Virus record (IMG/VR): IMGVR_UViG_3300005764_001667
Location: 1 to 56,241 of that record
Source: a virus
Lineage: Duplodnaviria > Caudoviricetes
Direction: 5' to 3' (one strand)
DNA length: 56,241 nucleotides
Made by a program: the position numbers and the translations under genes. Of the stretch, positions 7,440 to 55,370 are shown one piece after another. How positions within the stretch are numbered: the stretch's first letter is position 1; the number at the start of each line of letters is the position of its first letter. The notes under the pieces are model-generated. The model was not told the origin of the DNA and did not search any database. It saw nothing but the letters and a program-made list of their open reading frames with translations.

Positions 7440-7650
7440 CCGTCTCGACCCAGCACACCGCCCCACAGGAGAGTGGTTTGTCGGGCCGGTAAACGACACG
7501 AGCAACCTCCACGCCCTGCGAGTCGTAGATCACGACTTCGTGAGCGTAGTGGTTGCTCTTGTAGGTTTTAACGGTAATGACCGGCTCGCGGGCACCCGTC
7601 TTCCGGTTTGATTTAATCCGGTGCTGGTTGACGTGGATTATGGTTTTCAT
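7417..7650 (-). CDS. conserved small phage protein
   Basis: MKTIIHVNQH...PVITVK...PDKPLSCGA.CWVET, a pattern I recall from large-phage hypotheticals. Confidence 0.65.
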   Translation of the reverse strand: MKTIIHVNQHRIKSNRKTGAREPVITVKTYKSNHYAHEVVIYDSQGVEVARVVYRPDKPLSCGAVCWVETVNQVRLQ

Positions 7651-9247
7651 ACCGTTGGAACAATGGGGTGGGGCGTCCCTGGTTCAGAATATCGCGTGCC
7701 ACCCCCAAATCATAATCCAGACGACCCTCCGGCTGGTATAGCAGTTGGCGGAAATATTCCAGGTCCACTTCCTCCCAGGGTTTGCGGAAGGTAAACGACT
7801 CGTATATCTTCCGCGAGGTCTGTGGCAATATCGGTTTGAGCAGGATCGCCACCGCCCGCAGCCCGTTCATCAGGTTGCCGATGACCCCCGCCGCCTTCTC
7901 GCGGTCGGTCTTGATGAGCGCCCAGGGTTTCTGCTCGTCAATAAAACGGTTCATCGCCGCCAGGTCGCGCCAAATGTTCTCCAGCACGGTGCGGTAGAAA
8001 CAGTTCTCGATATTGTCGCAGTACGCCAGGTAGGCGTTGGCACCGAACGGCACGATCCCTTCCGGCTGCTCGGTCACCGACAGGTCGCCGTCGAAATAAC
8101 GGATGGCCATGCTGACGGTGCGGCTCAGCAGGTTGCCCAGGTTGTTGGCCAGGTCGGCGTTATAAACCTCGACAAAGTGATCGAAACTGAATTCACCGTC
8201 GCTGCCGTAGTCGCAGCGACTCAGGAAGTAATAGCGGTAGGCGTCACAGCCGAACTCCTTGACCAGTTCCATCGGGTCGAGGAACTTCCCGCTTTTGCTG
8301 GCCTTTTCGCCGTCGATGTTGATGAAGCCGTGGGCGAAGACCTTCTTTGGAAGCTCCAGTTCGTAGTAAGAACCCTCGTGGCCCTCGTTGTAGGCAATAA
8401 TCATGGCGGGCCAGAGAGCGCAGTGAAACTTGGTAATGTCCTTGCCAATGAAATGCACATCGGCAGGCCACCACGTCATGTCCGGCCCTTCCTTGTCCAT
8501 GCCCACCCCGGTCAGGTAGTTGAGCAGGGCGTCAAACCAAACGTAGATCACCTGGCTGTGGTCCCAGGGGACCGGAATGCCCCAGCCCTCGTTGCGGCGG
8601 CTGATGGAAATATCAAGCGGCTCACCGTCCGGGTCGTCCAGTTCAAAGGACACAAACTTCACGACCTCGTTATATCGGGACTCCGGCTCGATCACCAAAT
8701 CCGGGCCGGCGATGGCTTTCGGAGCCAGCATGTTAATGAGCTTGTTGCGGAACTTGTGAAGAAGGAAAAAGTAGTTCTCCTCCTCGGTCGTGCGAAGCTC
8801 CTGCTTGGGGTGGTTGGGACAGCGCCCGTCCACAACCTCCTTGGTCGTCTTGTAGGCTTCGCAGCCGTCACAATACAGGCCGGAGTATTTGCGCTTCTCG
8901 ATGAAGCCGGCCTTGTTCACCATCTGAATAAAGTGCTGGACGCCCTCGCGGTGGCGCTGTTCGGTGGTCTGGATAAAGCCGTCGTAGGAAATATCGAGGG
9001 CGTCCCACACGGCTTTGAACTCTGCGGCCATGCGGTCGCAGTACGCCTTGGGGTCTTCACCGAGATCGCGGGCACGCTGGGCGACCTTCCAGGTGTTCTC
9101 GTCGTTGCCCATCAAAAAGAAAACATCGTCGCCTTTGAAGCGACGATAGCGGGCCTGCACGTCGGCACCGATCTTCTCGAAGGCCGTCCCGATGTGGGGA
9201 CGGCTGTTGGGGTAGTCAATGGCCGTGGTCAGGAAAAACTTCGCCAT
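7613..9247 (-). CDS. metG: methionyl-tRNA synthetase (544 aa, no C-terminal dimerisation domain)
   Basis: TTAIDYPNSRPHIGT (HIGH variant), CxxC knuckle, ISISR, YVWFDAL, IGKDI, KASKS, NADLANNLGNL; SD GAGGG before ATG 9247. Confidence 0.95.
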   Translation of the reverse strand: MAKFFLTTAIDYPNSRPHIGTAFEKIGADVQARYRRFKGDDVFFLMGNDENTWKVAQRARDLGEDPKAYCDRMAAEFKAVWDALDISYDGFIQTTEQRHREGVQHFIQMVNKAGFIEKRKYSGLYCDGCEAYKTTKEVVDGRCPNHPKQELRTTEEENYFFLLHKFRNKLINMLAPKAIAGPDLVIEPESRYNEVVKFVSFELDDPDGEPLDISISRRNEGWGIPVPWDHSQVIYVWFDALLNYLTGVGMDKEGPDMTWWPADVHFIGKDITKFHCALWPAMIIAYNEGHEGSYYELELPKKVFAHGFINIDGEKASKSGKFLDPMELVKEFGCDAYRYYFLSRCDYGSDGEFSFDHFVEVYNADLANNLGNLLSRTVSMAIRYFDGDLSVTEQPEGIVPFGANAYLAYCDNIENCFYRTVLENIWRDLAAMNRFIDEQKPWALIKTDREKAAGVIGNLMNGLRAVAILLKPILPQTSRKIYESFTFRKPWEEVDLEYFRQLLYQPEGRLDYDLGVARDILNQGRPTPLFQRYENHNPRQPAPD

Positions 9248-9827
9248 AGTAGCCCTCCTCTTCCAGACCGCATTGCTCACAGTGGTTGGTGGGGCACAGA
9301 CCAAGCATGACCGGGCAATCTTCCAGCCCGTACTTGCACCCATGCTTGGTGCAGCAGTGCGTGGTGCAGCACAGGTTCCGCTCCAGTACATCCTTCTCCC
9401 AATCGGCCTCCAGGTCTGTTTTCGCGTCCGCCATCATTGTAGATGGCTTCGGGTCCGTAAAGAACGCCTGCGGTTCCTTCAACTTGCTCGTTTTTGGCCA
9501 GGGGCAGGGCACACGCTGGTTTTGCTGGTTAAAAAAGACCCGCTCCTTCACCCGCTTGTTCCCATCGCAGACCTTACACACGCCATTCTGCTGGAACCCG
9601 AAGGCAAATCCAGTGGCCTGACAGGACCGACAGGGGAACCCTTTCTCCTCGATCTCGTTCTCCTTGAGCCAGGCAAACAGGCACGCCAAGTTACAAAAGA
9701 AGTATTCCCACTTGGGCTGGTCGTAGTGGTGACAAGCCGGGCAAACGCGGTTCTCGTACTCGAAGGACAACTGCAAGTCAAACGACCCCTCGGCACCGCA
9801 GTGGGAACAGTGGATGACGCAAATCAT
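9216..9827 (-). CDS. Cys-rich zinc-finger protein
   Basis: Multiple CxxC pairs, including DnaJ-like CxxCxxxG. Confidence 0.6.
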   Translation of the reverse strand: MICVIHCSHCGAEGSFDLQLSFEYENRVCPACHHYDQPKWEYFFCNLACLFAWLKENEIEEKGFPCRSCQATGFAFGFQQNGVCKVCDGNKRVKERVFFNQQNQRVPCPWPKTSKLKEPQAFFTDPKPSTMMADAKTDLEADWEKDVLERNLCCTTHCCTKHGCKYGLEDCPVMLGLCPTNHCEQCGLEEEGYYGEVFPDHGH

Positions 9828-20816: not shown

Positions 20817-21641
20817 ATGGGTTCATCGGATGAGTGTCAGCGTATGCAGGTGATTCGCCTGATGGAGAAGAAGCCTGGTTTGGCGGCAACGATCTTGAAA
20901 CTGTACGACAAGTGCGAGGATGATTACGGCATTCCCCTTTCGGACCTGCCCCTGATGCTGGAGATGAAGAAGGTCGATTCCATGATGCGGGGTAGTGCGA
21001 ATGAATTTCGTCACTACCACGCCCTGGAAGGCATGGTCAAGGGTCAGGAGGGCTGCGAGGTTATAAAGGGTGACAGTGTAGACGCGGACATTTTCTTTGG
21101 CCGTCCGGGTTGCGAGGTCGTGAGCGCCACCAAGGATGGAAAATTAAAAGTAGAGGACAAGCTGGCAGCAGACCGGCCATTCAAGGCCAAGGACGGGTAC
21201 GCTCGCGTTCCCATGAAGGTGATGCGATCCCGGACTGCCGGGAAAAAAGTTTGCCAAAAACGGTCTGCCAAGACGGGGGTGGCCTGGCAGATACATCGAA
21301 AACATTCGGACAGCTACCGCCTTTCGGACTTCGACGTGGTGTTTACCTCAATAGAGGAGAACATCTTCGTTGCCGAGCCGGGGACCAAGGAGTGGGATAA
21401 AGAAGAAGAATTTCTGAACGGCTTCGGTTTGACTCACCGCATCGCCCGGAAGATGCGCGAGTTCGTCTTCTGGGCTTATGCGAAAGACCTGATCTCGACG
21501 GAAACGAACCCGGTGTGCCGCCGGAGGAAGTGTGACAAGAACTGCGGGTTTATTTACAACCACCCGATAGCGACAATCGAGATGGGCAGCAGGAAGGTTC
21601 TCCACCCCTGGCACCTACTCACCCCCTCGTGCTATCCATAA
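20817..21641 (+). CDS. hypothetical, possible restriction endonuclease-like
   Basis: RG.A.E...AD...Y..SDFDVV; near a DNA MTase. Confidence 0.4.
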   Translation: MGSSDECQRMQVIRLMEKKPGLAATILKLYDKCEDDYGIPLSDLPLMLEMKKVDSMMRGSANEFRHYHALEGMVKGQEGCEVIKGDSVDADIFFGRPGCEVVSATKDGKLKVEDKLAADRPFKAKDGYARVPMKVMRSRTAGKKVCQKRSAKTGVAWQIHRKHSDSYRLSDFDVVFTSIEENIFVAEPGTKEWDKEEEFLNGFGLTHRIARKMREFVFWAYAKDLISTETNPVCRRRKCDKNCGFIYNHPIATIEMGSRKVLHPWHLLTPSCYP

Positions 21642-22547
21642 ATCCAGCACCTTGGGCAGTAGGGCCATGCGGGTATAAACTCCGTTCTTTACCTGACGCC
21701 AGATTGCGCAACGCGGGTCGGCCTCCAGCCACTCCGGTATCTCGTTGTTACGCGGGAGCGGGTGCAATATAATTGCATTCCTTTTCATGTGGTGAAGAAT
21801 ATTGCTATCCACCGGCCACTGCCAGCACTTCTTTTCAAATTCTTCCTGGGCCTCCACCGGCCAGCGTTCCTTCTGTGGCCGAATCAAATAAAACACGTCG
21901 ATCTCGTGGGCTACCTCCAGCCGGTTTACGTTTTCGTGCATTATATTGTTGCCGCTCCATTTGAAATTTTCCTCCAACTCCAACCCCTTCGGGTGCGCGA
22001 GGTACGCGGTCACATCAAATTGCTGGAGGAGGTTGAGCAGCGAGTGGGCGGTGCGGCTGTGCTTGAGATCGCCCAGGAACATGACGTTCAGCCCATCCAC
22101 GGTGCCCAACTCGTTTTGGATGGTGAAAAGGTCGAGGAGGGCTTGTGTCGGGTGTTCGCCGTCGCCGTTGCCCGCGTTTATGATGGGACAATCACTGACG
22201 GTGGCTGCCTGATCCATCGCCGTGCGGTCGGCGTGCCGAATCACGATCACGTCGGCGTACTGGCTGACCGTCTTCACGTTGTCCTCCAGGGACTCGCCCT
22301 TCCGCAAGGACGTGGTGTCGGCCTCCGTGACGCTGAGGACGGAGCCGCCCAACCGTTTCATGGCCGTCTCGAAGGAAAGGCGCGTGCGGGTGGATGGCTC
22401 GAAGAACATGGTCGCCAGGATGTGATCGCGGAGGATTTGTACTTCCTGCCACATTCCGGTTTCTGCCAGGTGTTTCATGCTGCCGGCAGACGCCAGCACG
22501 TCAAGAACAAAAAAGCGGTCCAAGCCGCGCGTAGAAAGGACGTGCAT
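21615..22547 (-). CDS. pyrB: aspartate carbamoyltransferase catalytic subunit
   Basis: FFEPSTRTRLSF, INAG.G..EHPTQ, GDLKHSRT, HPLPR. Confidence 0.96.
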   Translation of the reverse strand: MHVLSTRGLDRFFVLDVLASAGSMKHLAETGMWQEVQILRDHILATMFFEPSTRTRLSFETAMKRLGGSVLSVTEADTTSLRKGESLEDNVKTVSQYADVIVIRHADRTAMDQAATVSDCPIINAGNGDGEHPTQALLDLFTIQNELGTVDGLNVMFLGDLKHSRTAHSLLNLLQQFDVTAYLAHPKGLELEENFKWSGNNIMHENVNRLEVAHEIDVFYLIRPQKERWPVEAQEEFEKKCWQWPVDSNILHHMKRNAIILHPLPRNNEIPEWLEADPRCAIWRQVKNGVYTRMALLPKVLDLWIARGGE

Positions 22548-24355: not shown

Positions 24356-25183
24356 ATGGGACTGCCACCTTTATTTTCGCAGCGTATGCTGATGTGCTGG
24401 CCCAGGCACTATCAAGTTTGCTATAAGATCAACCCCTGGATGAAGCCCGACGAGCCGGACCAGGCGGTTAAAAGGTCGCTCGCCGTCAAGCAGTGGATCA
24501 ATCTTCATCATACCCTCATTCGCCTTGGCGTCTTTGTGGAATACATCGACGCCACCCCCGCTATACCCGATCACGTCTTTACCGCCAACGCCGGATTGAT
24601 TTATGGCGAAAAGGTGGTATTATCCAATTTCAAATACAAGGAGCGGCAGAAGGAACGCCGTAAATACCATCGCTGGTTCGAGGACCATTGCCTTGAAGTC
24701 AAGACCCTTCCCGCCAAGCTTCACTTCGAGGGGGCTGGTGACGCACTGTTTGTTGGTGATACCTTATACGGTGGTTTTGGTTTTCGCTCTGATTATCTCG
24801 CTCATATTCAGGTCGCTGATACGCTGGGAATCAAGAAGTTCCATCTTCTCAAGCTTGTCGATCCTCGTTTTTATCATCTGGATACCTGTTTTTGTCCTCT
24901 GCGGAGCAATACGGCTCTTGTATTCCCGGACGCCTTCGACCCCGAATCCCTGGCTGTGATGGACTCGCACCTGAACATGGTGCCGGTCCCGCCCCAGGAG
25001 GCCGAAAGATTTGCTTGCAACGCCGTCGTCCTCAACAACGACATCGTGATTCCGAAAGGCTGTCCGTTGACGCGGGAGCGACTGATCGGGGAGAACTTTC
25101 GCGTATATGAAGTCGAGATGGGGGAGTTCATCAAGGCCGGCGGTGCCTGCAAGTGTTTGACCCTGAATTTAGGTGTAATATGA
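24356..25183 (+). CDS. amidinotransferase/dimethylargininase family protein
   Basis: INPWM, PD.VFTANAG, FEGAGD, FYHLDTCF, FIKAGGACKCL. Confidence 0.9.
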   Translation: MGLPPLFSQRMLMCWPRHYQVCYKINPWMKPDEPDQAVKRSLAVKQWINLHHTLIRLGVFVEYIDATPAIPDHVFTANAGLIYGEKVVLSNFKYKERQKERRKYHRWFEDHCLEVKTLPAKLHFEGAGDALFVGDTLYGGFGFRSDYLAHIQVADTLGIKKFHLLKLVDPRFYHLDTCFCPLRSNTALVFPDAFDPESLAVMDSHLNMVPVPPQEAERFACNAVVLNNDIVIPKGCPLTRERLIGENFRVYEVEMGEFIKAGGACKCLTLNLGVI

Positions 25184-26121
25184 AACAGATTAGCATGGAC
25201 TTGGTTCGCGTCACGGAGGCGGCGGCGATTTCCGCGTCGGCCTGGGTTGGGAGCGGCAATAAGGAGGAGGCGGATCGGGCGGCGACAGACGCGATGCGGG
25301 ACCGTCTGAACCAGCTTCCCATGCACGGTGTCATTCGTATTGGCGAGGGCAAGAAGGACGGGGCACCGGGATTGTTTCGCGGCGAAATCGTCGGGGGTCT
25401 GCGCGACATGGCGGTAGACCTTCATGTTCCTTCGCTCGATATTGCGGTGGACCCCATCGACGGCACCCGGCAGACCACCATCGCCGGCCCGGAAGCCATC
25501 AGCGTACTGGCGGTCGCGGACCACAACACCATGTTCCATACCGACGATTTCTACATGCTGAAATTGGCCTACGGCCCGGAGATCGCCACCCGGACCACCC
25601 TGAACGTGGACGCCCCGCTCAAAGACACCCTGGGGCGGGTTGCCAAGGCCATTTATAAACAGATCGAGAAGTTGACCGTCTGCATTTTAGACCGTCCGCG
25701 TCACGCGGAATATATTGATGAAATGCGGCGCTGTGGTTGCCGCATCAAACTCATTCAGGACTGCGATATTTCCGGGGCCATCGCCACCTGCCTGCCCGAT
25801 AGCGGCGTGGACCTGCTGTTCGGCATCGGCGGTGCCCCGGAGGCGGTTATCACGGCCTGCGCCATGAAATGCTTGGGCGGCAACATGGACTGCCTTATTT
25901 GGGACCAGAAAAGCGGCGAACAAACGGGCTATGCTCGCGGCCAGCCCTATACCCTAAAGCATTTGGTGGACGGCAATTGCTGCTTTGCGGCCACCGGCGT
26001 GACCAACGGCAGCTTGCTCAAGGGGGTACGCTGGACGCAGCACGGCCCGATCACCAACAGCGTCTTCATGCGGTCGGAGAGCGGCACAGTGCGTTGGCTA
26101 ATCACGGAGCATGGGAACTAA
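25180..26121 (+). CDS. glpX: fructose-1,6-bisphosphatase class II
   Basis: RVTEAAA, IGEG, DIAVDPIDGT, LDRPRH, GIGGAPE, AATGVT.G. Confidence 0.95.
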   Translation: MKQISMDLVRVTEAAAISASAWVGSGNKEEADRAATDAMRDRLNQLPMHGVIRIGEGKKDGAPGLFRGEIVGGLRDMAVDLHVPSLDIAVDPIDGTRQTTIAGPEAISVLAVADHNTMFHTDDFYMLKLAYGPEIATRTTLNVDAPLKDTLGRVAKAIYKQIEKLTVCILDRPRHAEYIDEMRRCGCRIKLIQDCDISGAIATCLPDSGVDLLFGIGGAPEAVITACAMKCLGGNMDCLIWDQKSGEQTGYARGQPYTLKHLVDGNCCFAATGVTNGSLLKGVRWTQHGPITNSVFMRSESGTVRWLITEHGN

Positions 26122-27617: not shown

Positions 27618-28158
27618 CCCGGAATTGTTGAATATGACCAAAACACCCGACGCCTTATACCAGGAGCAGCGCCGCCTGGCTCTGTCGAAGGCCAAGGAAG
27701 TCCTCCAGGGTTTGATGGTTAAGCTCCAGATGAAGTACGACGGCAAGCCCTTCAAGTGGGTTTTCCCGGACAACGTGTATTCCTATACCGACGCGGTGAA
27801 GGAACTGGTGGTCGAGGCGATGCAGGCGCAGGGCTGGAGGATGAAGAAGGATCGAGGCCGCAGCTATACCATCACCAAGGGTTCCGCGATCCAGCCGGGC
27901 GAAGCCTGGTACGGGACGCTCAAGATCGCCGGGGAGGGCACGCAGGGTTTATTGGTGGTGAAGACCAACCCAGAGATGGAGACAGGTTACGACATCCTTA
28001 ACAGCCACCTTGAGGGTTCCCTCAAGGAAGGAGACGACGTTCATTTGCTGGACGAGGACGATGGGTGGAGTTGGATAGGTCGCCTGCACGAAAACGGCGT
28101 GCCCGTGGAAATCCAGGCGTTGGAATTGCTCAAGTTGCATCACGAGGGCGGTAAGTGA
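27598..28158 (+). CDS. hypothetical protein
   Basis: ORF in operon. Confidence 0.6.
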   Translation: MMTQKLDPELLNMTKTPDALYQEQRRLALSKAKEVLQGLMVKLQMKYDGKPFKWVFPDNVYSYTDAVKELVVEAMQAQGWRMKKDRGRSYTITKGSAIQPGEAWYGTLKIAGEGTQGLLVVKTNPEMETGYDILNSHLEGSLKEGDDVHLLDEDDGWSWIGRLHENGVPVEIQALELLKLHHEGGK

Positions 28159-39234: not shown

Positions 39235-39591
39235 CTAGGGGTCAGCACCGGGAGATAACGGGGTATCGGGCCGCTTTTGCCCTTCCGCCTTGGTTGCCTC
39301 CTTTTGCCTCCGCAACATGCCATGTTTACCTCCTTTGAGTACGCGACTCGGATAGTTTATATAGCCGTCCATGCCTTCATCTTCCTTTTTCTTCTCGTCG
39401 TATTCATAAAACGACGAGTAGTCGTCGGTGATTACCACCTGCAAGTCGTGGTGGTGAATCAAGTAGTCCTTGTACTGCGAGCGGTCGGCTTCGTTGTAAA
39501 CCCGGAAGAACAGTTCCCCGTTCACGCCGCGTAGCAAGTAGCCCTTGACGTTGTGGGCCGAGGTTTCATTGGCTTGGAAGGTTCGTTCCAT
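39235..39591 (-). CDS. hypothetical protein
   Basis: ORF downstream of valS. Confidence 0.6.
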   Translation of the reverse strand: MERTFQANETSAHNVKGYLLRGVNGELFFRVYNEADRSQYKDYLIHHHDLQVVITDDYSSFYEYDEKKKEDEGMDGYINYPSRVLKGGKHGMLRRQKEATKAEGQKRPDTPLSPGADP

Positions 39592-40957
39592 GTTGCACCT
39601 TGGGTTTGAGTTTGATGAGGGTGCCTGGCATGAACACCCCCATGTATTCGCGCATGTCGTCGTAGATGGCCCGTAATGTGCCGTTCATGGGCTGGCGCTT
39701 GGATTCTTCAATCCGAATGGCGCAGAAACGGTGCCAGAAGTATTCAAAGAACAACTCGCCGGCCTCCGGCCAGTCATAGTCCTCGAAGGCGGCATTGATG
39801 CCCGCTTTGCGGTCCAGCCACTCCTTCCAGACTGCCTCGTTGGTGGTCTGGTCCGCGTGCATTTCCAAGAAACGCTCCGCGTTGCGCCACTTGGTAACAC
39901 ACCGTTTCCCGTATTCCATGCACACAGGGTTGATGCGGGTGTCGGAGCCGATGGTGGACTGTGCGGCCCAATAGCGAACGCCATCGGACGTGTGCTGGTC
40001 GAAGTATTCATTCGGCGGCTTGTAGTTTCCCTCCGTCTTGGAGATTTTCTTCCCTTTGGGGTCCAGGGCGTGACCACTGATGACGATGGTGCGCCAGGGA
40101 ATCTGATCGTTGTGGAGGACGCTTTTAATGATGGTGAATAGCGCCCAGGTGCGGATGATGTCGTGGGCCTGGAACCGAACGTCAAATATCGGACACTTGA
40201 GCGTGTTCTGGTATTTCCCTTCCTCATGCCAGGCTAGTTGCGGTGATAAACTGGACGTGTGCCAGGTGTCGAAGACGATGCCGGGCGGTTCTCCGGGGAT
40301 GGGGATGCCGTAGTTTCGCTCGCGGCTGATCGACCAGTCCTGGTTGCACTGGTCCAGCCAGGCCAGCAGGCGGTCTTTATATTTCTGCGGCTTCCAAACG
40401 ATCTGGTTGATGGCGGCGCGGATGCGTGGCAGGTTGTCGAGGACTTTTATGAACCAGCCCTCGCCCCGCCGGATTTCGACCTTTTCGCCGCTTCGCTCGT
40501 ACCGCCCGTCCTCGGTCAGTTCGTTTTGGGAGACGGAAACCTTGGTGACCGGGCAGAAGAAATAGTCCCGCTCGGCTTTGTACGCCTGGCCCTTGGCCAC
40601 CAAGTCGTGGAACGAGAGTTCGGCCAGGCGGACGGCGAAGGGGCTGAAAGTGCTATAGTGATGCCACGAGTAGGCCATCGCCAGGCGCATGAACAGGATG
40701 TGGTAGGCGAGGGCTTCGCCGTGGGAGAACCCGATGATTTGGTCTTGCTGCATAATGCCCGCAGCGTGGGCCAGTTTCTCCGTTGGGAGGCCGTTGTTGT
40801 CGTAACAGTACGGGTAGACGAGGTATTCGTCTTTTATGTGTCTGTGGTATCGGGCAATGAAGTCCATCTGGGCGTAGCTGAAAACATGGCCCATGTGGAG
40901 GGTGCCGCTAACGGTAGGCGGCGGAACGTCGATGAGGAATTTTCTGTCCTTGTTCAT
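39566..40957 (-). CDS. valS: minimal valyl-tRNA synthetase (463 aa; CP1 editing, CP2 and coiled-coil absent)
   Basis: ID.PPPTVSG.LHMGH, DNNGLPTE, DWSISR, FDTW..SS, QAHDIIRTW, KISKT. Confidence 0.92.
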   Translation of the reverse strand: MNKDRKFLIDVPPPTVSGTLHMGHVFSYAQMDFIARYHRHIKDEYLVYPYCYDNNGLPTEKLAHAAGIMQQDQIIGFSHGEALAYHILFMRLAMAYSWHHYSTFSPFAVRLAELSFHDLVAKGQAYKAERDYFFCPVTKVSVSQNELTEDGRYERSGEKVEIRRGEGWFIKVLDNLPRIRAAINQIVWKPQKYKDRLLAWLDQCNQDWSISRERNYGIPIPGEPPGIVFDTWHTSSLSPQLAWHEEGKYQNTLKCPIFDVRFQAHDIIRTWALFTIIKSVLHNDQIPWRTIVISGHALDPKGKKISKTEGNYKPPNEYFDQHTSDGVRYWAAQSTIGSDTRINPVCMEYGKRCVTKWRNAERFLEMHADQTTNEAVWKEWLDRKAGINAAFEDYDWPEAGELFFEYFWHRFCAIRIEESKRQPMNGTLRAIYDDMREYMGVFMPGTLIKLKPKVQHGTNLPSQ

Positions 40958-41106: not shown

Positions 41107-41202
41107 TAGCCGAGGCGGGACTCGAACCCGCAAGCCCTAACGGGCAGAGGATTTTAAGTTGCCTGGCTTAATCCTCAGCGTATACCTTTCCGCCACTCGG
41201 CC
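41107..41202 (-). tRNA. tRNA-Leu (UAA-like) with 13-nt insertion in anticodon loop
   Basis: Acceptor GGCCGAG/CTCGGCT+A73, D arm, stem GAGGA/TCCTC closing a 20-nt loop, long variable arm, GGTTCGAGTCC; no encoded CCA. Confidence 0.85.
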
Positions 41203-43705: not shown

Positions 43706-43848
43706 GATTCTTTGCAGCCTTGGCAGTACCAGTAGTGCGGCTTCGACAGGTACTCATTTGCCATTTCAAGGTTTACTTTGCCGCTCTCAATATTGTCCAG
43801 TAGCCTCAAAAGGCAGGACCGACCCAAAGCCCTTCCGGTTGGACACAA

Positions 43849-44095
43849 GGCAGTACACCCCCATAAGCGGGATTCTGTTCTATGCCATCATTTATCTCAC
43901 AGGCCGTGGTGGGCCTGCGGCCTTGCGGCTGCACCTACCAGACCGTCGCCCTGCTCACCGGCATGGGTCTATTTGGCTTGCACCCTCCGAGGTAACTCGA
44001 TACTGAGCCTTGCGGCTGTTCTCTCCCTCGTTAAGCAGTGGTGTCCCGACTTTCCTCTACGGCTTGCGCCGCAGCGATGGCTCGGAGTGACTGCC
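43849..44095 (-). ncRNA. rnpB: minimal RNase P RNA (~247 nt)
   Basis: GAGGAAAGTCGGG (CR I) and ACAGAATCCCGCTTA (CR V) with compensatory P4; P1 GGCAGT-CACTCC/GGGGTG-T-ACTGCC; P2 GCCATCG/TGATGGC; P3 with GCAA loop; TACAAT -10 at 44101-44106. Confidence 0.9.
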
Positions 44096-46671: not shown

Positions 46672-46699
46672 TCCGTAAAGGAGTATGCCAAGTTGAAAA

Positions 46700-46784
46700 T
46701 GCCCCCGCCAGGACTCGAACCCGGACACCCGTTACAGGTACTTGGGCCTAAGCCAAGCGCGTCTACCTTTTCCGCCACGGGGGC
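46700..46784 (-). tRNA. tRNA-Leu(UAG)
   Basis: GCCCCCG/CGGGGGC+A73, loop CT-TAG-GC, long variable arm, GGTTCGAGTCC; no encoded CCA. Confidence 0.95.
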
Positions 46785-46788
46785 AATG

Positions 46789-48737: not shown

Positions 48738-49220
48738 TTAAATCTCGTCTCGATACTTCTCCCCGACCTCTCGGACAATTTCCCCATCCGGGCCTTTTTT
48801 GAAAGTCGTCACCCGCAGGGGCCGCTCGCCCTTGGCCCATTGAAGACTTTCTTGCAGTCCCCGCACGATCCTCTGGCCCACCGTCTGCGGCTCGCCCAAC
48901 TTCTCACTCGCTTTCCAGGCTTGCTCAATGCTGGAGCCGATCCGGGCAAACAGATCGTCCGGGGCGTAGCCGGGAAACGCGGTGCCGGTGGCGTGATATT
49001 GCTCGGCCTTCCAGTGGCAGTTGTCCTGGTCGTCACCCGCGCAGAGGGTGATGCCGTTCTCCGCGACATAGCCGCCGTTGGGCATGGCGTGGCGGTCTTC
49101 GATGTGGTGTGCGTCCAGTTTACAGCCCTTGCGCCCGCACATGACGCACTGGTGGCCGTCCCGCTCGAAGCAGGCGGTGCGGAAGGCTTCGCGGACGGCT
49201 TTTTTGTCGGCCTTAGCCAT
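48738..49220 (-). CDS. HNH endonuclease
   Basis: RDGHQCVMCG...LDAHHI...NGITLC...CH. Confidence 0.8.
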   Translation of the reverse strand: MAKADKKAVREAFRTACFERDGHQCVMCGRKGCKLDAHHIEDRHAMPNGGYVAENGITLCAGDDQDNCHWKAEQYHATGTAFPGYAPDDLFARIGSSIEQAWKASEKLGEPQTVGQRIVRGLQESLQWAKGERPLRVTTFKKGPDGEIVREVGEKYRDEI

Positions 49221-50553
49221 GCAAGTACACCACGACTTTCTGTAGCTCGCACAGGGCGTCCCGCAACTCGTTGGCGCTGCACCGTACTTTAGCGCCGGAC
49301 CTGCCCAGGGGGCACCAGTCGGTGTCGGCACAGGAACAGTGGCCGGGCAGTGCGATATTCTGCCCCTTATTTTGCGGGCTAAAACGTTTGTAGGGCTGTT
49401 CCTCAAAGCTCTCCAGTTCCCGGAGGAATTCCTTGTCCGTCATCCTTACCCTCCTTGGTCTTTTTCATCGCTGGCAAACCGGGAATGGCACCGGGTTTGA
49501 CGTGATGGCAAACCTCCGGCGGCGGGTCGGCGGGCGTCAGGCCGCAACTCGGCATGTGTTTCACTTCGCCGCAGCCAAACCAGACACGATACCACCCTGG
49601 CCAGTCCCCTTTCCCCACCACCAATCCCAGGGCGTCCCGATTCCACACCCAGGACAGAATGTCAAAATCGGGGTACTCCGGCTCTTGGAGGACGATCTTG
49701 CGGCGCTTGCCTTTCTCATCGAACATGCTCGGCCCGGCGTGCCCAGAGAATTTCAGGTCTGCGAAATAAGAACCGACCTCCTGCTCATTGCGCACCCGCA
49801 TGAAGGTTCGCAGGGCTGCTTCAAGGTCCGGCGTTTGATTCATGACCTTGCCGTTATAAACCACTTCCCAACCCTTCGTGTGGCCCGGCCCGCCGTAGCC
49901 GATCTCCCGCAGTTCCAGGGTGGAGTCGTGGTCCAGGCAGCCCTTTTCCGCAAAGGCCGGGCCGACGATGCGGATAACGAAGTCGCGCTGGCTGGCGAGC
50001 AGAGTCAGGATCGCCACTTCCAACCTTTCCTCGTCGCCCGTGGACCAGTAGTAGCGGCGGATTTCCTGGTCACCCTGTTTATAGACCACCAGTTCTCCGG
50101 CCCGCCAGGGGTGACGGACGGTTTCGTGGGTGGCGCGAAGCGGCTCTCCTTGCGGTTTCATTGGCATTCCTCCGGCCATTCGATGACGTTGGTGGTCGCT
50201 TCCTTCAGTGTAGCGTAGTCGATGATCCCGTGGTAGCTGAAATGCGGCTCTCCGGCTGCCTTGCAAAACGCCCGCAGGGTTTCATCCGACTCCATCATCT
50301 GGAGAACCATGTCAAGCTTCATGCCGCTTTGGTACATCCGCTCGTAATACTCGACCTCCTCCGGCGGGTCGTCGCGCAACTGCTCTCCGAAGATTACCTC
50401 CTCGCCCAACATCACCCGCAGGTAACCCCAACGATACCGTGCGTAGACCTCCTGGCCGTCCGCCGTCTTGCCCACCCAGGAAGACGGGCAGCCGAAGCAG
50501 GTCTGTTCGACCGTCACCACGGTTACTTTGCTGACTTCTCGGTATTCCTTCAT
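49213..50553 (-). CDS. three hypothetical ORFs (49213-49443, 49403-50161, 50158-50553)
   Basis: Coupled co-oriented ORFs. Confidence 0.55.
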
Positions 50554-50554
50554 C

Positions 50555-51094
50555 CTACCACTCAATATACTGCGCCGGAACGTGATCTGTTAACCAGACT
50601 CCGTTCTCGGACTGGTAGAATTTGTAGCCGGCGTCGTGCATGTCGCCGGCACGCACACGCAGAATCACGGGTCTTCCGCGCCGCAGGGCGACCTTGCGGG
50701 CCGTTTCCTGGTCCGGGGACAGGTGAACGTGATGCCGCCGCATCTTGTGCAGCCCTTTTTCCCTTATGGTGGGGGCAAACCGATCCACGGTGCCGTGAAA
50801 CAGATGGTTGGGAGGTCGTTTTTCAACAAGCTGGAGATCAACCGGAGTGGAGTGACCCTGGTTGGCGCGGATGAGGGTTTGCGTCTCGTCCAGCGAGAAG
50901 CGTTTCTTGTCGTTGTTATCCACGCATTCTTTTATTTCCTCCGGCGTGACCGGGAATCCTTGTTGACGAGCGCCCTCGATGACGCTGGCCAGAGAAACCC
51001 AGCCGCCGGGCATCAACGTCAGGCCCAGGGCCTCCGGCTCGTGCCGCAGGTACTTGGCGAGGAACTTGCTCACGCGAATATGTCGGGGTGTCAT
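50555..51094 (-). CDS. kptA: RNA 2'-phosphotransferase (Tpt1/KptA)
   Basis: SKFL...LRH, K.RF, IRANQGHS, FHGT, RHHVHLS, SENGVWL. Confidence 0.95.
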   Translation of the reverse strand: MTPRHIRVSKFLAKYLRHEPEALGLTLMPGGWVSLASVIEGARQQGFPVTPEEIKECVDNNDKKRFSLDETQTLIRANQGHSTPVDLQLVEKRPPNHLFHGTVDRFAPTIREKGLHKMRRHHVHLSPDQETARKVALRRGRPVILRVRAGDMHDAGYKFYQSENGVWLTDHVPAQYIEW

Positions 51095-51663
51095 GATGAA
51101 TACTGCTTTACGGCGATTCGGGAATAGCGGAGAACGTCGTCCAGGGTTCCGTAGCGCGGCCACGGGATGGTGGTGATGAAGTCGGGGTCTTCTTTTGAGT
51201 TAGCCTCCCACGTTTTCCAGTCCGGGCCGTTGGCATCACTAACCCGGTCGTCATTGACATACGCATGTGCCTTCAGGTAACCGCCGTGCAGGCTGGCGCT
51301 CTGGGTCCAAATGCTGCTCCAGAACGAGGAGATGACCGCCTTGAAGAAACTTTCCTCCTCCGGGTAGCCGTTTTTCACGCTCTCCATGCAAATACGCAAG
51401 TCCTGGTTATAGACGTTCCACAAGTTCGGGTAGAAAAGGCATTGGTCCCGTTGACGCAGGGATTCGTTGCGGAACGCCAGGTGCAAGGTGATGTGGTGGT
51501 GCCTGGTATATGCAATAATAAATACCAGCCAAGGAAAGGCCAGGAAGTGGGTATAGTGTTTAGCAGCGCGATCATGCTCCGATACGCGGACGGAGATTAC
51601 TCGACAACACGGCGGCGTTTCGAGGACCGCGATCCCGTCCTCAGCATAGCGAAGCCTCAACAT
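51091..51663 (-). CDS. possible prokaryotic E2 family D-like protein
   Basis: FP.LVF...L.NVY...IC...FW.S pattern. Confidence 0.4.
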   Translation of the reverse strand: MLRLRYAEDGIAVLETPPCCRVISVRVSEHDRAAKHYTHFLAFPWLVFIIAYTRHHHITLHLAFRNESLRQRDQCLFYPNLWNVYNQDLRICMESVKNGYPEEESFFKAVISSFWSSIWTQSASLHGGYLKAHAYVNDDRVSDANGPDWKTWEANSKEDPDFITTIPWPRYGTLDDVLRYSRIAVKQYSS

Positions 51664-51678
51664 ACATCGCGGCTCCTT

Positions 51679-52011
51679 TTATTTGCAGCACCATGCGATG
51701 AGGCACGCGACCCCAAGCACGCAGAGGCCGATAGCGACCCAATACCACCAGGCCGATCCGTGACGGGCGCGTGGCACCCACATCGTTATGTGCGGCTTGT
51801 GGTGCTGGGCGGCGTCCTGGCGTGTGAGCTTATCGAGGAACAGGTGGCAGTTGCCGCAGTAGTGCTGTTGAATATCGTCCCGGTTGTAGCTGGTCATGCC
51901 GCACAGGTGGCAGGTTATGCCGCCGTCGCGGACGGTGTAATTTTTACCCTGGTGTTCTTTCTTGGCCTGCTCCAAGTGCTGTTGGATAAGCCGGCGATTA
52001 CTTTGAGTCAT
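51679..52011 (-). CDS. Zn-finger membrane-anchored protein
   Basis: CHLCG..S....D....YCGNCH; C-terminal TM. Confidence 0.55.
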   Translation of the reverse strand: MTQSNRRLIQQHLEQAKKEHQGKNYTVRDGGITCHLCGMTSYNRDDIQQHYCGNCHLFLDKLTRQDAAQHHKPHITMWVPRARHGSAWWYWVAIGLCVLGVACLIAWCCK

Positions 52012-53179
52012 AATGCACCCGCTCCCCGAAAATGTGCGGCACGAAGCGGCTCATGTTCTGGGTGATCCGGCCCCCGTCCTCGCGGACGCCCATGCCGCAA
52101 GCCCAGCCGTTGACGATCCAGCTTCCGATCACCGGGAAGTGGCCGTCGAAATTTGGAAGTTCCCAAAGTTCTTGGTATATTGCAGGGCCGTCGTATGGCC
52201 CCTCCGTCTCCTCCACCTTCTCGCCATGCTCGAAGATGGCGATGTTGGCACCCTCCCGTGACAAGATCGGTTTCTTCACATAATCCTTGATGTCGTGGAT
52301 TTCCAGGTCCACCGGGTCGAAGTAGCACGCCAGCAAGTAAGTGTTGTTCGGATACAACTCCCACAACGTCGGCAGTAGTGCCTTGTTGCTTAACAGGGAC
52401 TTCCAGGGCGGCTCCCACCACTTGGTCCGGGCCTGGCGCAGATACGGGCCAAACTGCTCGCGCATCAGCCATTCCCAGGGGTAGAGTTTGAAGATTTGTT
52501 TGATCTCCCGCTCTTGCAAGTCGGTGAAGATGCCGCTCGCCTGGTTCCAGCCCACGTCGTCTATGTCCAGGTACTCCACCCCCGCCAACGGCCCGAAGCC
52601 CGCCTGCACGGCCACGTCCTTGAGGTAGTTGACGGTCATGTAGTCTTCGACGCTGCCCTTGAGCGCTGCGAAATAAAAACGCTCATCCCCGACCTGTTCG
52701 CGGATGACTTTGAAGACTTCGAGGAGGCGGTCGTGGATGCTGTTGAACTGGTCGCCGCCCGGATGCACGTCTTTCAACCAGAACCACTGGATCACCGAGG
52801 CTTCGAGCAGGGACGTTGGCGTGTCGGCGTTGTACTCAAAAAGCATCGGGTCGTGGCCGGGCTGGAAGCAGAAGTCGAAGCGACCGTAGATGGTGTGGTC
52901 ATCTTCTTCCCAGGAGCGCACGATGTAGTCGTCGTAACCGGGCGGGATTTGGAAGCGGTCGAAAAGATCGTGGTCGATGATGTGCTGCACCGCCGCCAGG
53001 CACATCTCGTTGAGGGCGTAAGTGGCCTTCTCGATCTGGTCCACTTCTGCGCGGCTGAATTCGTAGTAGGCAGACTCGTTCCAGTAGGGCGCACCGTCCT
53101 CGCTGGTGTGGAAATAGAGTCCCTGGCCTTCCACTATTTTCTGCCAGTTCTCACGAGGTTCCACCGTGAGCCTTCGCAT
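51998..53179 (-). CDS. glutathionylspermidine synthase family ATP-grasp ligase (YgiC/YjfC-like)
   Basis: YW.E.AYY, YGRFD, EYNADTPTSLLEA, FKLYPWEW, EPPWK..LSNK, KP..SREGAN, RED. Confidence 0.93.
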   Translation of the reverse strand: MRRLTVEPRENWQKIVEGQGLYFHTSEDGAPYWNESAYYEFSRAEVDQIEKATYALNEMCLAAVQHIIDHDLFDRFQIPPGYDDYIVRSWEEDDHTIYGRFDFCFQPGHDPMLFEYNADTPTSLLEASVIQWFWLKDVHPGGDQFNSIHDRLLEVFKVIREQVGDERFYFAALKGSVEDYMTVNYLKDVAVQAGFGPLAGVEYLDIDDVGWNQASGIFTDLQEREIKQIFKLYPWEWLMREQFGPYLRQARTKWWEPPWKSLLSNKALLPTLWELYPNNTYLLACYFDPVDLEIHDIKDYVKKPILSREGANIAIFEHGEKVEETEGPYDGPAIYQELWELPNFDGHFPVIGSWIVNGWACGMGVREDGGRITQNMSRFVPHIFGERVHYDSK

Positions 53180-53480
53180 CTCGCTTCTCCAACTCGTCCG
53201 CGATGTCGAACATGGTTCGCTCGTCGCCGCAGTACAAGGTCCGCAGACCGTCCGCTAGTTCCTGGGAAGTCATGGGGACTGTCTTGACCACCACACCCAG
53301 CAGTGCCTCCATGTCCCGGACGGCGTTGTGGTCACCCGCCGGGCCAATGCCGATTTTCAGTACCCCGTCCTTGTAGCTGAGCGGAAGGACGTGGTAAAGC
53401 ATCGTCAGAGTTTCGGGGATGAGATGTGCCGCGCCACGCTGGTCGTCGTGCGGCACGGCCCATTCATGGTAGGTCTTCAT
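53151..53480 (-). CDS. stand-alone GspE/PilB N-terminal domain
   Basis: LIPE......VLPL...G.L.I......A..D....LG..V........L...L..LY. Confidence 0.6.
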   Translation of the reverse strand: MKTYHEWAVPHDDQRGAAHLIPETLTMLYHVLPLSYKDGVLKIGIGPAGDHNAVRDMEALLGVVVKTVPMTSQELADGLRTLYCGDERTMFDIADELEKRDAKAHGGTS

Positions 53481-53482
53481 GC

Positions 53483-53797
53483 CTAGCTCCCCGCAGCCGC
53501 ATGACCCATGCCGCCGAAACCGCCCCGCACGGAAATCGAAGGGGACTTCGCGCCGCCCGATGCCATCCCGTGCCCGCTAAAAACTGCCGCACCACCGGCG
53601 TGCGGGAAAATAACGCTGCCGGCGGTGTCAGGCATGGGCGCGGCGTGGGGATAAATGATGTAGCCACCGCCCCGCACTACGGGCCGATCCCGGTCGTCGT
53701 GATCCGGCGGGCCGTGACCGGCACAACCGGCCAGGATCAGCGACGACGAGATCAGCCACAGGTTTATTTTCTTTGAGAGTCTGCTGTAAAGCCACAC
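53483..53797 (-). CDS. YgiB/DUF1190-like lipoprotein
   Basis: Lipobox LAGC; C-terminal RGGFG; operon position. Confidence 0.65.
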   Translation of the reverse strand: MWLYSRLSKKINLWLISSSLILAGCAGHGPPDHDDRDRPVVRGGGYIIYPHAAPMPDTAGSVIFPHAGGAAVFSGHGMASGGAKSPSISVRGGFGGMGHAAAGS

Positions 53798-53803
53798 GGT
53801 TGC

Positions 53804-54046
53804 TCACCGTACCACTTGACCCACGAGGTAGGCGATTCCCAGGAGGATCGCAGCAATAACGATGGCGACGGCGGTGTTTTTGTGTTCGGAGAGTTCGCGC
53901 TGGAAGTGGACGCTGGGGAACAGCCAGTCGAACAGCTTGAATCCGAACAACATCAGCGCGATGCCGATGAGGCCGAAGATGAGCGATCCTGCCATTCCCT
54001 CCCCGATTTTCTCCCAGGAGAGTTCAGCAAAGAGCAACATTACCAA
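53804..54046 (-). CDS. DUF350 membrane protein
   Basis: Two TMs, 'FD...P.....EL...N.AVAIV'. Confidence 0.8.
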   Translation of the reverse strand: MVMLLFAELSWEKIGEGMAGSLIFGLIGIALMLFGFKLFDWLFPSVHFQRELSEHKNTAVAIVIAAILLGIAYLVGQVVR

Positions 54047-54086
54047 CTCCTTTTTGAAATGTGGACACCTTGCACCCAGGGCTGGA

Positions 54087-55370
54087 TTATACCGGGTGGT
54101 CCAAAGGTTGTAAAGCCAAACCAGGGGCGAAGCAGTGGAGCATCGGGAGCAGCGCCGCCACCGTCGCGGGGGAAGGCTTTTTCTCCCGATTCTTGTTGTA
54201 AAACCCCATCAGGGTGGAGACGACCTTGTTGACCTTCCAGCTTTGTAAGTAGTGGTGGACCTGGGCGTGGAGATCGGTCAGGTCGATGTCGTTTTCACCG
54301 GGCTGGGACAGCCAGCGCCGCAGCCGGCCCAGGAACCGGCGAATACCCGTGATGGCTTTGTCGTCCCAATCACCCCCTTCCTGATACGGTCCCAGGAACA
54401 TTAGATAAAGGCGCAGTTCGTCGGGGTCGTAATCGTCGGGGTTGACGGCGTTGCCTTTGCTTTTTCCCATCTTGGCACCGCCCGCCGTTATCATGCCCTG
54501 GTGGACGACGTGTTTGAAGGGTTCCTCCTGCGTGACGATGCCCAAGTCGTAGAGGAACATATTGATAAAGCGGGCGTAGATCAGGTGCATACACGCATGT
54601 TCCGGCCCGCCAACGTACAGGTCCACCGGCTGATAGTTGTGGGCGTGCAGGAAAACCTCCGGGTCATTTTCCAGGTAGCGGAGGAAATAAAAGCTGGAAT
54701 CCACGAACGTGTCCAGCGTGTCCGTGTCGCCCTCGATGGGGATGGGGCAACCCCACTTGCGTTGGCGGGACACGCACCAGTCACGCAGGCCCTCCAGCCA
54801 GACCCTCTGCTGCTTGCGGGTGCCTTCGGGGTAGTCGATCCGGTCCAGGTTGTCGATGAGCCGGTCCTTGTAGGCGGTGATTTTGAAATACCACTGGTTG
54901 AGTTGGCGGACCTCCGGCTTGGCGCTACAACGATTGCAGTAGCCACCGCTCACCTGCTCGTTCGCCAGCACGGTGTCGCAGGAGGGGCAGTAGTTGACCG
55001 GGCCGAAGGCTTTGTACGCCAGCCCCTTGTTCTTCAGCAGGGTGAAGAGCCACTGCGTCCATTTGTAGTAGGAAGGGTCACAAGTCACCAGCTTTTCTTC
55101 GTACTGCGTGTTCATGCGGGCCATCTGCGCCCGGAACCGTTCGATGTTGCCCCAGGTGACGGTCTTGGGGTCGCCGCCGATGGAGCGGGCGTAGTTCTCC
55201 GCAGGCAGGCCGAAGGCGTCGTAGCCGAAGGGCTGGAAGACTTCGGTGCCGAGGTAACGCAGCCACCGGCAGTAGGAGTCCACGATTGCGTAGTTGTAGC
55301 AGTGCCCCAGGTGCAGGCCCGCGCCGGACGGGTAGGGAAACATCACGCAGCAATAGAATGGTTTACTCAT
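54087..55370 (-). CDS. leuS: minimal leucyl-tRNA synthetase (427 aa; CP1, CP2, Leu-specific and C-terminal domains absent)
   Basis: MFPYPSGAGLHLGH, DAFGLPAEN, YYKWTQW.F, TVLANEQV, LRDW..SRQR.WG.PIP, DTFVDSS, YVGG.EHA..HL.YARF, KMGKSKGN. Confidence 0.95.
   Translation of the reverse strand: MSKPFYCCVMFPYPSGAGLHLGHCYNYAIVDSYCRWLRYLGTEVFQPFGYDAFGLPAENYARSIGGDPKTVTWGNIERFRAQMARMNTQYEEKLVTCDPSYYKWTQWLFTLLKNKGLAYKAFGPVNYCPSCDTVLANEQVSGGYCNRCSAKPEVRQLNQWYFKITAYKDRLIDNLDRIDYPEGTRKQQRVWLEGLRDWCVSRQRKWGCPIPIEGDTDTLDTFVDSSFYFLRYLENDPEVFLHAHNYQPVDLYVGGPEHACMHLIYARFINMFLYDLGIVTQEEPFKHVVHQGMITAGGAKMGKSKGNAVNPDDYDPDELRLYLMFLGPYQEGGDWDDKAITGIRRFLGRLRRWLSQPGENDIDLTDLHAQVHHYLQSWKVNKVVSTLMGFYNKNREKKPSPATVAALLPMLHCFAPGLALQPLDHPV

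Follow-up and report, generated by a model that had tools for sequence, protein, structure and literature searches.

Reduced leucyl-, valyl- and threonyl-tRNA synthetase genes and a reduced RNase P RNA gene in a phage genome fragment

Reduced forms of tRNA-charging and tRNA-processing enzymes have been described from several sources, and we set against them four aminoacyl-tRNA synthetase (aaRS) genes and an RNase P RNA gene in the IMG/VR virus record IMGVR_UViG_3300005764_001667, a stretch of 56,241 bases analysed here as a whole and called the window. As described in PMC3643597, the leucyl-tRNA synthetase (LeuRS) of Mycoplasma mobile is a natural enzyme without the CP1 editing domain, in which a tetrapeptide replaces the leucine-specific domain. 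Threonyl-tRNA synthetases (ThrRS) consisting of a catalytic and an anticodon-binding domain are represented by truncated forms of the Escherichia coli enzyme (1evk and others), the yeast mitochondrial enzyme (3ugq) and crenarchaeal ThrRS-cat (3a31). The nearest known architectural analogue of the RNA is the type T RNase P RNA of Thermoproteaceae (Pyrobaculum), which combines, as described in PMC7191817, a catalytic domain (C-domain) with a drastically reduced specificity domain (S-domain). Al-Shayeb et al. 2020 (PMC7162821) found that huge phages encode tRNAs, S21, genes for tRNA repair and as many as 15 aaRS in a single genome; the window belongs to the same kind of phage and carries the same gene classes. 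In the main text of that paper, truncated or editing-less forms are not mentioned and the term 'RNase P' has 0 occurrences, while the supplementary aaRS tables may list these proteins (PMC7162821). Jumbo-phage aaRS are mentioned by Iyer et al. 2021 in passing only. Our searches of the open-access literature, with supplementary files outside their scope, found no paper on a phage mini-LeuRS, a phage mini-ValRS (valyl-tRNA synthetase) or a phage-encoded RNase P RNA. As far as these searches reach, four of the elements presented below are undescribed: the mini-LeuRS, the mini-ValRS, the reduced RNase P RNA family of phages and the tRNA-Leu(UAA) with a masked anticodon. We know of no natural ValRS without CP1, the searches not having been aimed at ValRS specifically.

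The window is a complete IMG/VR virus entry of class linear with a G+C content of 52–60% throughout. CheckV assigns the 56,241 bases a completeness of 11%, and the genome would therefore measure about half a megabase; the source is most likely a huge phage of about 0.5–0.7 Mb, akin to the Mahaphage-sized uncultured phages. Megablast of 25 kb of the window against the GenBank phages gave no match, and the protein search then reached the relatives. The closest GenBank phage found in this way is the uncultured LR745206 (634,780 bp; LeuRS identity 60%). The closest IMG/VR record, G001 (343 kb, 69% complete), is collinear across the entire window, with window positions 1–56170 corresponding to G001 62320–114982 at a nucleotide identity of 68–80% (aligned blocks of at least 300 bases). 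Additionally, a contig of 669,797 bp bears near homologs of the window ValRS (79%) and ThrRS (77%). Two further relatives, G002 (452 kb, 36.5% G+C) and G005, have direct terminal repeats and are rated as viral genomes of 100% completeness. The phage origin of the window is well supported, because the record is a virus record, it carries phage genes, G001 is collinear with it and homologs of its synthetases lie on the 669,797-bp contig.

Domain anatomy of the synthetases

The window contains the four aaRS genes that a first-pass annotation had listed, encoding proteins of 427 (LeuRS), 463 (ValRS), 400 (ThrRS) and 544 residues (methionyl-tRNA synthetase, MetRS), and the NCBIfam models assign each of them by a wide margin (coordinates in Table 1). 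The same annotation held that the first three lack their editing domains. Alignments to the Thermus thermophilus and E. coli enzymes agree with this, and they show that the losses are clean and run in parallel through the class I pair and the class II enzyme.

The mini-LeuRS scores 394.5 bits with the bacterial model TIGR00396 (leuS_bact) and at most 137.6 bits with any other NCBIfam aaRS model. Its residues 6–192, 194–212, 208–296 and 299–360 align with residues 36–224, 418–436, 487–579 and 636–701 of T. thermophilus LeuRS, respectively. A single residue stands in the place of the CP1 editing domain (T. thermophilus residues 224–417), an insert of about 50 residues (437–486) and the leucine-specific domain (580–635) are missing, and the chain, which ends at residue 427, stops about 110 residues short of the T. 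thermophilus C terminus. Measured against 21 full-length relatives, the enzyme is short of about 30 residues at the N terminus and about 80 at the C terminus, with internal gaps of 195 residues (median) following residue 193 and of 52 following residue 212. The enzyme ends after the four-helix bundle of the anticodon domain, and the C-terminal tRNA-binding domain is gone. This bundle is kept together with the Rossmann core, the HLGH and KMGKS motifs and the ZN1 insert. Among 67 sequences, HLGH shows little or no variation at H20, G22 and H23, and KMGKS little or none at M301 and K303; at the site of the leucine-specific domain the family consensus reads ITxDGxKMSKS and the window enzyme ITAGGAKMGKS.

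AlphaFold2 predicts a compact mini-LeuRS with a C-terminal helical bundle (pLDDT 93.7, pTM 0.92), and the top fold match of this model is M. mobile LeuRS (3ziu, TMq 0.89–0.90). Both enzymes have a bacterial-type core, no CP1 and only a few residues for the leucine-specific domain. However, the phage enzyme measures 427 residues against 637, since its C-terminal domain, about 30 N-terminal residues and the insert of about 50 residues that follows the WG.PIP motif are missing as well. M. mobile LeuRS is moreover the sole LeuRS of its cell, whereas the phage enzyme is encoded by the phage in addition to that of the host. The best 120 relatives of the mini-LeuRS share 64–81% identity, are nearly all 409–443 residues long and lie on contigs of up to 633,754 bp. 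In a library of 1.84 billion representatives, the best match is a protein of 429 residues with 60% identity, followed by two-block forms of 530–657 residues, in which CP1 is gone but more of the remainder is kept, and then by three-block enzymes of 780–1344 residues with about 41–52% identity. One homolog of 541 residues (P0008) carries an extra reverse-transcriptase domain (PF00078), possibly a fusion or a gene-call artefact.

The mini-ValRS scores 332.5 bits with the ValRS model PRK13208 and 133 bits with the isoleucyl-tRNA synthetase (IleRS) model of NCBIfam. It contains the motifs PPPTVSGTLHMGH, FDTWHTSS and KISKT, and H21, G23, H24, K307 and the PPP motif are conserved in the family alignment. 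CP1 is gone, as 103 residues are found where T. thermophilus ValRS has 266, about 160 short between residues 93 and 358. The alignment ends near T. thermophilus residue 661 of 862, just past the helical anticodon-binding region, and the C-terminal domains are gone. The anticodon-binding domain is indicated by PF08264 matches in many family members and by the helices at residues 344–442 of the AlphaFold2 model; for the window ValRS itself, PF08264 is not among the Pfam matches at E<=0.001. The model is compact (pLDDT 91.2, pTM 0.89) and ends in a helical bundle. Its body plan resembles MetRS (TMq 0.75–0.79 to MetRS chains of about 500 residues), and the comparison with T. thermophilus ValRS (1gax) gives TMq 0.82 and TMt 0.45. 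Compared with this canonical ValRS, the phage form shares the ValRS-type signature motifs and the top family score, but it has neither CP1 nor the coiled-coil or stem-binding C-terminal domains. Its best 120 relatives (43–91% identity) are nearly all 423–492 residues long, on contigs of up to 769,991 bp.

The short ThrRS passes the TIGR00418 cut-off (475.4 bits versus 383.65) over model positions 172–562 of 565, and its residues 2–389 correspond to residues 243–626 of the 642-residue E. coli enzyme. The catalytic core (PF00587) and the anticodon-binding domain (PF03129) make up its entire Pfam content. Neither TGS (PF02824) nor the editing domain tRNA_SAD (PF07973) was found in it, and tRNA_SAD is missing from the whole window. 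C95, H146 and H273, which we take to be the zinc ligands, are invariant among 30 sequences that include full-length bacterial enzymes, as is the motif-3 block G278–R282. The domain content equals that of 1evk, 3ugq and 3a31. Unlike those editing-less enzymes, the window ThrRS belongs to a phage-borne clade, and it shares about 50% identity with bacterial enzymes of full length. Its top 42 relatives all measure 385–413 residues, on contigs of up to 670 kb, and a full-length ThrRS with TGS and tRNA_SAD first appears at rank 43 with about 50% identity. The truncated E. coli ThrRS of Dock-Bregeon et al. 2000 is said to charge tRNA-Thr but to mischarge serine.

The fourth enzyme, MetRS, had been described as shortened as well. 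It does lack the C-terminal appendix of the E. coli type, but it passes the TIGR00398 cut-off (419.8 bits versus 336.35). We rejected MetRS as a miniaturised enzyme and regard it as an ordinary short bacterial form, because its alignment with solved bacterial MetRS chains of 497–547 residues (some of which may be constructs) runs from end to end.

The reduced RNase P RNA and the tRNA genes

The RNase P RNA of the window, 247 nt long, matches the RF00010 model over its full extent (60.3 bits, E=5.9e-16). It had been annotated as shrunken, and most of its S-domain is indeed gone: about 140 model positions of this domain are represented by about 47 nt, a short stub. The RNA keeps P1–P4 and the conserved core strands GAGGAAAGUC and ACAGAAUCCCGCUUA, which are invariant across 14 phage RNase P RNA sequences. 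The counterpart in G001 (249 nt, 65.9 bits) is 91% identical over the whole aligned stretch and, by estimate, about 95% identical inside, with diverged flanks. Compensatory changes separate the two in P1 and P3, and double compensatory changes occur at 19 of the 52 predicted pairs when two further relatives are included (four sequences).

A pattern search of IMG/VR for two P4 strands 150–180 nt apart returned 15 contigs, 13 of them distinct. All 13 loci are full-model RF00010 matches of 221–269 nt and 46–136 bits, two of them above the gathering score; that they are short is dictated by the search pattern. At eleven of the 13, the neighbours are tRNA genes, mostly in dense arrays. The reduced type A RNAs (L137–L151) occur on many unrelated viral contigs of 10–343 kb; transfer-messenger RNA (tmRNA) genes lie in three of the loci (L143, L147 and L149), and L143 also contains a GOLLD RNA. 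The protein partner RnpA is encoded in three of seven related records, namely G003 (165889–166158), G004 (440379–440669) and LR745206 (76444–76752), and was not found in the window, G001, G002 or G005. Of the RnpA-bearing records, G003 and G004 have no RNase P RNA by RF00010, and LR745206 was not searched for the RNA.

These features suggest that the 247-nt RNA would be a type A ribozyme consisting of the C-domain only, which would process phage pre-tRNAs most likely with host RnpA, some relatives encoding an RnpA of their own. Unlike the archaeal type T RNA, it has a bacterial type A core and is phage-encoded, and in other phages such RNAs lie inside tRNA arrays. As natural C-domain-only ribozymes, such RNAs would bear on the long-standing problem of the role of the S-domain, and reduced RNase P RNAs in phage tRNA arrays would bring ribozyme-based tRNA processing to viruses. 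The RNase P S-domain and the C-terminal region of LeuRS are modules that read the tRNA elbow. As the first-pass annotation remarked, both are gone here.

Two tRNA-Leu genes had been proposed for the window. The tRNA-Leu(UAG) is canonical, and it is the only tRNA called by default ARAGORN and Rfam. The other is a tRNA-Leu(UAA)-like gene on the ValRS strand, 150 nt upstream of where ValRS starts, with a Leu-type acceptor stem, a D-arm, a long variable arm and a canonical T-arm. At position 31/32, a 13-nt insertion separates the canonical CUUAAAA loop from the 5' half of the anticodon stem; five of its nucleotides pair with the anticodon loop. In the minimum-energy fold, the 96-nt element forms a cloverleaf whose 10-bp anticodon arm hides UAA. 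The element does not present a 7-nt anticodon loop, and it gives no match to the Rfam tRNA model (RF00005) at E<=1 and no default ARAGORN call; removal of the insertion yields a normal tRNA-Leu(UAA). The G001 ortholog (99858–99952; L058 1507–1601) has a 10-nt insertion with the same pairing and another apical loop, and it differs from the window gene by compensatory changes in the acceptor and anticodon stems. With a pattern built for the interrupted tRNA-Leu, only G001 matched within the clade, and the other five matches were 3' halves of tRNA-Leu(UAA) without an Rfam match. In L062 (about 8100–8700), the one locus read, the half lies directly downstream of what looks by eye like an integrase open reading frame (ORF), and on this ground we take the halves (in L061, L062 and L064–L066) for attachment sites of temperate phages integrating into tRNA-Leu(UAA). 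No Rfam intron matched in the window at E<=1 when a group I intron was sought, and the two 3-nt bulges of a bulge-helix-bulge motif were not seen by inspection.

The bS21 homolog and the Tpt1/KptA RNA 2'-phosphotransferase of the first-pass annotation are present. Tpt1 matches PF01885 over positions 2–176 of 177 (E=1.2e-49, 169.2 bits versus a cut-off of 26). It occurs in the window and G001, the two records with an interrupted tRNA-Leu, and not in the complete G002 and G005, a pattern of four records that amounts to an anecdote. The proposed kinase is a P-loop kinase of the AAA_33 type, for which the label polynucleotide kinase is weak (PHROG 'polynucleotide kinase', E=5.9e-7, kinase half only). 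PHROG searches of ten neighbours of Tpt1, the kinase and ValRS found no RNA ligase in the window; RNA-ligase-family genes are located elsewhere in G001, G002 and G005, with RtcB in G005 only. G001, which also has bS21, carries 12 tRNAs and a tmRNA, and eight of the 12 are tRNA-Leu. Three of these (anticodons CAA, UAG and CAG), in a region just past the window end (G001 122015–127072; L102), are only 75 nt long, with a short variable arm, an aberrant T-loop (UGCAAYU) and, as read from the printed 3' ends, the A73 discriminator. In G002, the 41 tRNAs include seven for Leu and one each for Thr, Met and Val. As G001 and G002 carry many phage tRNA-Leu genes, it is plausible that these are linked with the mini-LeuRS.

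The mini-LeuRS, the C-domain-only RNase P RNA and the odd tRNA-Leu set might even form a private leucine channel that does not read the tRNA elbow, including a masked tRNA-Leu(UAA) that would be spliced through the kinase, a ligase and Tpt1; we consider this quite unlikely. If true, it would give a bacterial-virus Tpt1 a natural substrate and be the first case in a bacterial system of a short tRNA intron removed by splicing. In any case, the interrupted tRNA-Leu(UAA) in Tpt1-bearing genomes offers a concrete, testable clue to why Tpt1 occurs in the bacterial world at all, for which there is no explanation so far.

Conservation and competing readings

The claim that the short forms are selected was examined in the related huge-phage records. 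The ratio of nonsynonymous to synonymous substitution (dN/dS) between the window and G001 is 0.148 for LeuRS, 0.121 for ValRS, 0.168 for ThrRS and 0.235 for MetRS (dS 0.75–1.09; this pair only, farther pairs being saturated). Orthologous open frames measure 425–432 residues for LeuRS (n=6), 454–499 for ValRS (n=3) and 405–433 for ThrRS (n=3), no stop falls within the aligned frame of any of these orthologs, and the short length holds across 43–94% identity. The evidence from these sequences points to functional genes under purifying selection and not to decay. In the species-representative genome collection GTDB, 29 LeuRS-related loci were found, only two of which are of the short type, the remainder being full-length. 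Both short-type loci lie on contigs of metagenome-assembled genomes (MAGs) labelled as different phyla, of 375,071 bp and 16.5 kb. The short LeuRS, ValRS and ThrRS are the normal enzyme of no cellular lineage.

From this anatomy, conservation, selection and phage context, we infer activity, substrates, infidelity and purpose as follows: the reduced LeuRS, ValRS and ThrRS are probably active phage-borne synthetases that secure the supply of aminoacyl-tRNA, with the C-domain-only RNase P RNA alongside. Three families are cut down to what activating an amino acid and passing it on to tRNA requires, a catalytic fold and a helical or α/β anticodon-binding domain; the hydrolytic editing domain is lost in all three, and the C-terminal domains that bind the tRNA body in LeuRS and ValRS too. 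During infection, the synthetases would most likely increase or safeguard the amounts of Leu-, Val-, Thr- and Met-tRNA by charging host tRNAs and, for leucine, also the phage's own large tRNA-Leu set. Errors arising without post-transfer proofreading would be tolerated or cleared by host factors. If active, these enzymes would represent the smallest natural LeuRS and ValRS scaffolds and compact starting points for orthogonal synthetase–tRNA pairs. They would also serve as natural experiments on which class Ia modules are dispensable, how much proofreading a short infection needs and how far phages take over tRNA supply. Judging from sequence, some phages appear to bring along a pared-down toolset with which they produce and charge tRNAs themselves.

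Several observations weigh against this reading. LeuRS stays below the equivalog cut-off of TIGR00396 (394.5 versus 548.4 bits) and ValRS below the curated cut-off of PRK13208/TIGR00422 (332.5 versus 738), a shortfall that is expected from the missing domains, membership resting on the core only. The RNase P RNA likewise scores below the Rfam gathering score (60.3 versus 100). E. coli LeuRS stripped of its C-terminal domain reportedly loses aminoacylation altogether, and by analogy the phage LeuRS may need compensating features or fail on standard tRNA-Leu. No tRNA-Val, tRNA-Thr or tRNA-Met was found in the 343 kb of G001 (69% complete), and the substrates of ValRS, ThrRS and MetRS would therefore be host tRNAs. 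Furthermore, the parts are inherited independently and not together. A LeuRS without CP1 is present in all seven related records (425–432 residues in six of them and a longer form of about 503–520 residues, 32% identical, in LR756501), mini-ValRS in three (G001, G005 and LR745206), and short ThrRS in another combination of three (G001, G002 and G003). RNase P RNA was detected in G001 only among five related records searched; RF00010 found none in G002–G005, a result that does not establish absence, as the model is weak on reduced forms. Finally, LR745206 encodes an IleRS of 735 residues (382047–384254; L009 34–2241) that keeps CP1, since its match to TIGR00392 is unbroken over positions 2–803 (674 bits, above the cut-off). 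This seemingly editing-competent enzyme in a relative argues against a general drive to drop proofreading, and with it the notion of a system free of proofreading throughout falls.

The IleRS of LR745206 is C-terminally shortened, in a genome whose LeuRS lacks CP1 and which also has a mini-ValRS; a similar open frame of 749 residues lies in G003 (51904–53625), which has a CP1-less LeuRS as well. The trans-editing proposed earlier found no phage-encoded counterpart, as tRNA_SAD (PF07973), YbaK-type (PF04073) and free LeuRS-CP1 (PF13603) domains were not found in the seven records (D-Tyr-tRNA deacylase and others were not searched). Weak PF13603 matches in frames of 739–749 residues of G003 and LR745206 were rejected as free editing domains, the LR745206 frame being the IleRS. 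In the aaRS loci searched, no neighbour able to supply the missing domains in trans is conserved outside G001 (stand-alone C-terminal domains elsewhere were not searched). As no phage-encoded trans-editing was found, the clearing of mischarged tRNAs would fall to host factors.

How the short enzymes are to be understood depends on what else could account for them. That they are decaying remnants of captured host genes fits the loss of large parts of the ancestral proteins, but dN/dS of 0.12–0.24, intact frames of constant length down to 43% identity, invariant catalytic residues and compact, confident AlphaFold2 folds make this extremely improbable. A cellular contig, from a reduced symbiont or a bacterium of the candidate phyla radiation (CPR) with these synthetases as housekeeping enzymes, is very hard to maintain. 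It could appeal to the few homologs labelled as MAG proteins of various phyla and to the relatives that IMG/VR classes as 'provirus'; the window, however, has phage replication genes and homing endonucleases, no ribosomal RNA, no ribosomal protein operons and only four aaRS genes. The related records are GenBank huge phages and, for G002 and G005, terminally repeated complete viruses, and the two mini-type loci among the 29 of GTDB belong to MAG contigs of different phyla. Pseudogene decay and cellular origin were thus rejected on the selection, the intact frames, the phage genes and the GTDB scan.

Active synthetases remain the reading that we prefer, and two other accounts bear on what they do. 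The short proteins might be aaRS paralogs with a non-translational job, such as amino-acid activation, regulation, a role as inhibitor decoys or the provision of aminoacyl-tRNA to a pathway that modifies the cell wall, DNA or metabolites. Phage use of aminoacyl-tRNA outside translation is known, Mom using Gly-tRNA (PMC13219725). The scores of LeuRS and ValRS under their equivalog cut-offs and their lack of tRNA-body-binding domains would suit such a role. Against it, all three enzymes keep their anticodon-binding domains, the HIGH and KMSKS motifs, which serve catalysis and the handling of the tRNA 3' end, are invariant, and the enzymes co-occur with phage tRNA sets. The ThrRS, moreover, passes its equivalog cut-off and is the exact counterpart of the truncated crystallised ThrRS forms, which are active; on balance, a non-translational role is unlikely. 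Alternatively, as the first-pass annotation held, the parts could be one co-selected, proofreading-free backup module against host tRNA-targeting defence or starvation. The window and G001 both carry the full set of parts in one shared order, and in G001 tRNA-Leu genes are strongly over-represented and Tpt1 with RNA-ligase-family genes is compatible with tRNA repair. Yet the ten parts are spread over 48 kb among unrelated replication and metabolic genes, each is present or absent independently across the seven related records, LR745206 retains a CP1-bearing IleRS, the aaRS neighbours are conserved in G001 only, and nothing links the genes to any defence system. We regard such a module as improbable. 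The way in which the parts are distributed does not bear out a single purpose-built system, and they form a system only loosely.

Further genes of the window

The coordinates of the features are collected in Table 1. Among the replication and nucleotide genes, the window encodes a gp32-like single-stranded DNA-binding protein, a DnaB-like helicase, a family A DNA polymerase (Pol A) and a dCMP deaminase. An N6/N4 DNA methylase and RecD-like and ResIII helicases are also present. The carbamoyltransferase, GlpX, the DDAH-like protein, the glutathionylspermidine-synthase-like protein and HSP20 make up a group of auxiliary metabolic and stress genes.

Table 1 Features of the window, with positions on the 56,241-base stretch
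Feature	Positions	Strand	Size	Identification or remark
HSP20	2714-3238	(-)		Stress gene
GIY-YIG/NUMOD3 homing endonuclease	4831-5361	(-)		Adjoins dCMP deaminase gene
MetRS	7613-9247	(-)	544 aa	TIGR00398; from ATG at 9247 (ORF extends to 9391)
Aspartate/ornithine carbamoyltransferase	21615-22547	(-)		
DDAH-like amidinotransferase-fold protein	24356-25183	(+)		
GlpX fructose-1,6-bisphosphatase	25153-26121	(+)		
P-loop kinase	28155-28712	(+)	185 aa	AAA_33, E=2.7e-9
bS21 homolog	29279-29494	(+)	71 aa	PF01165, E=1.2e-12
Short ThrRS	33956-35158	(+)	400 aa	TIGR00418
Mini-ValRS	39566-40957	(-)	463 aa	PRK13208; from ATG (ORF reaches 41056)
tRNA-Leu(UAA)-like gene	41107-41202	(-)	96 nt	Leu-type cloverleaf
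Reduced RNase P RNA	43847-44093	(-)	247 nt	RF00010
tRNA-Leu(UAG)	46699-46785	(-)		Canonical type II; default ARAGORN and Rfam
HNH endonuclease, weak match	48738-49406	(-)		
Tpt1/KptA RNA 2'-phosphotransferase	50555-51163	(-)	202 aa	PF01885
Glutathionylspermidine-synthase-like protein	51998-53179	(-)		Auxiliary metabolic
Mini-LeuRS	54087-55370	(-)	427 aa	TIGR00396

The GIY-YIG ORF has an atypical G+C content at the three codon positions (0.55/0.43/0.47), which suggests a recent insertion.

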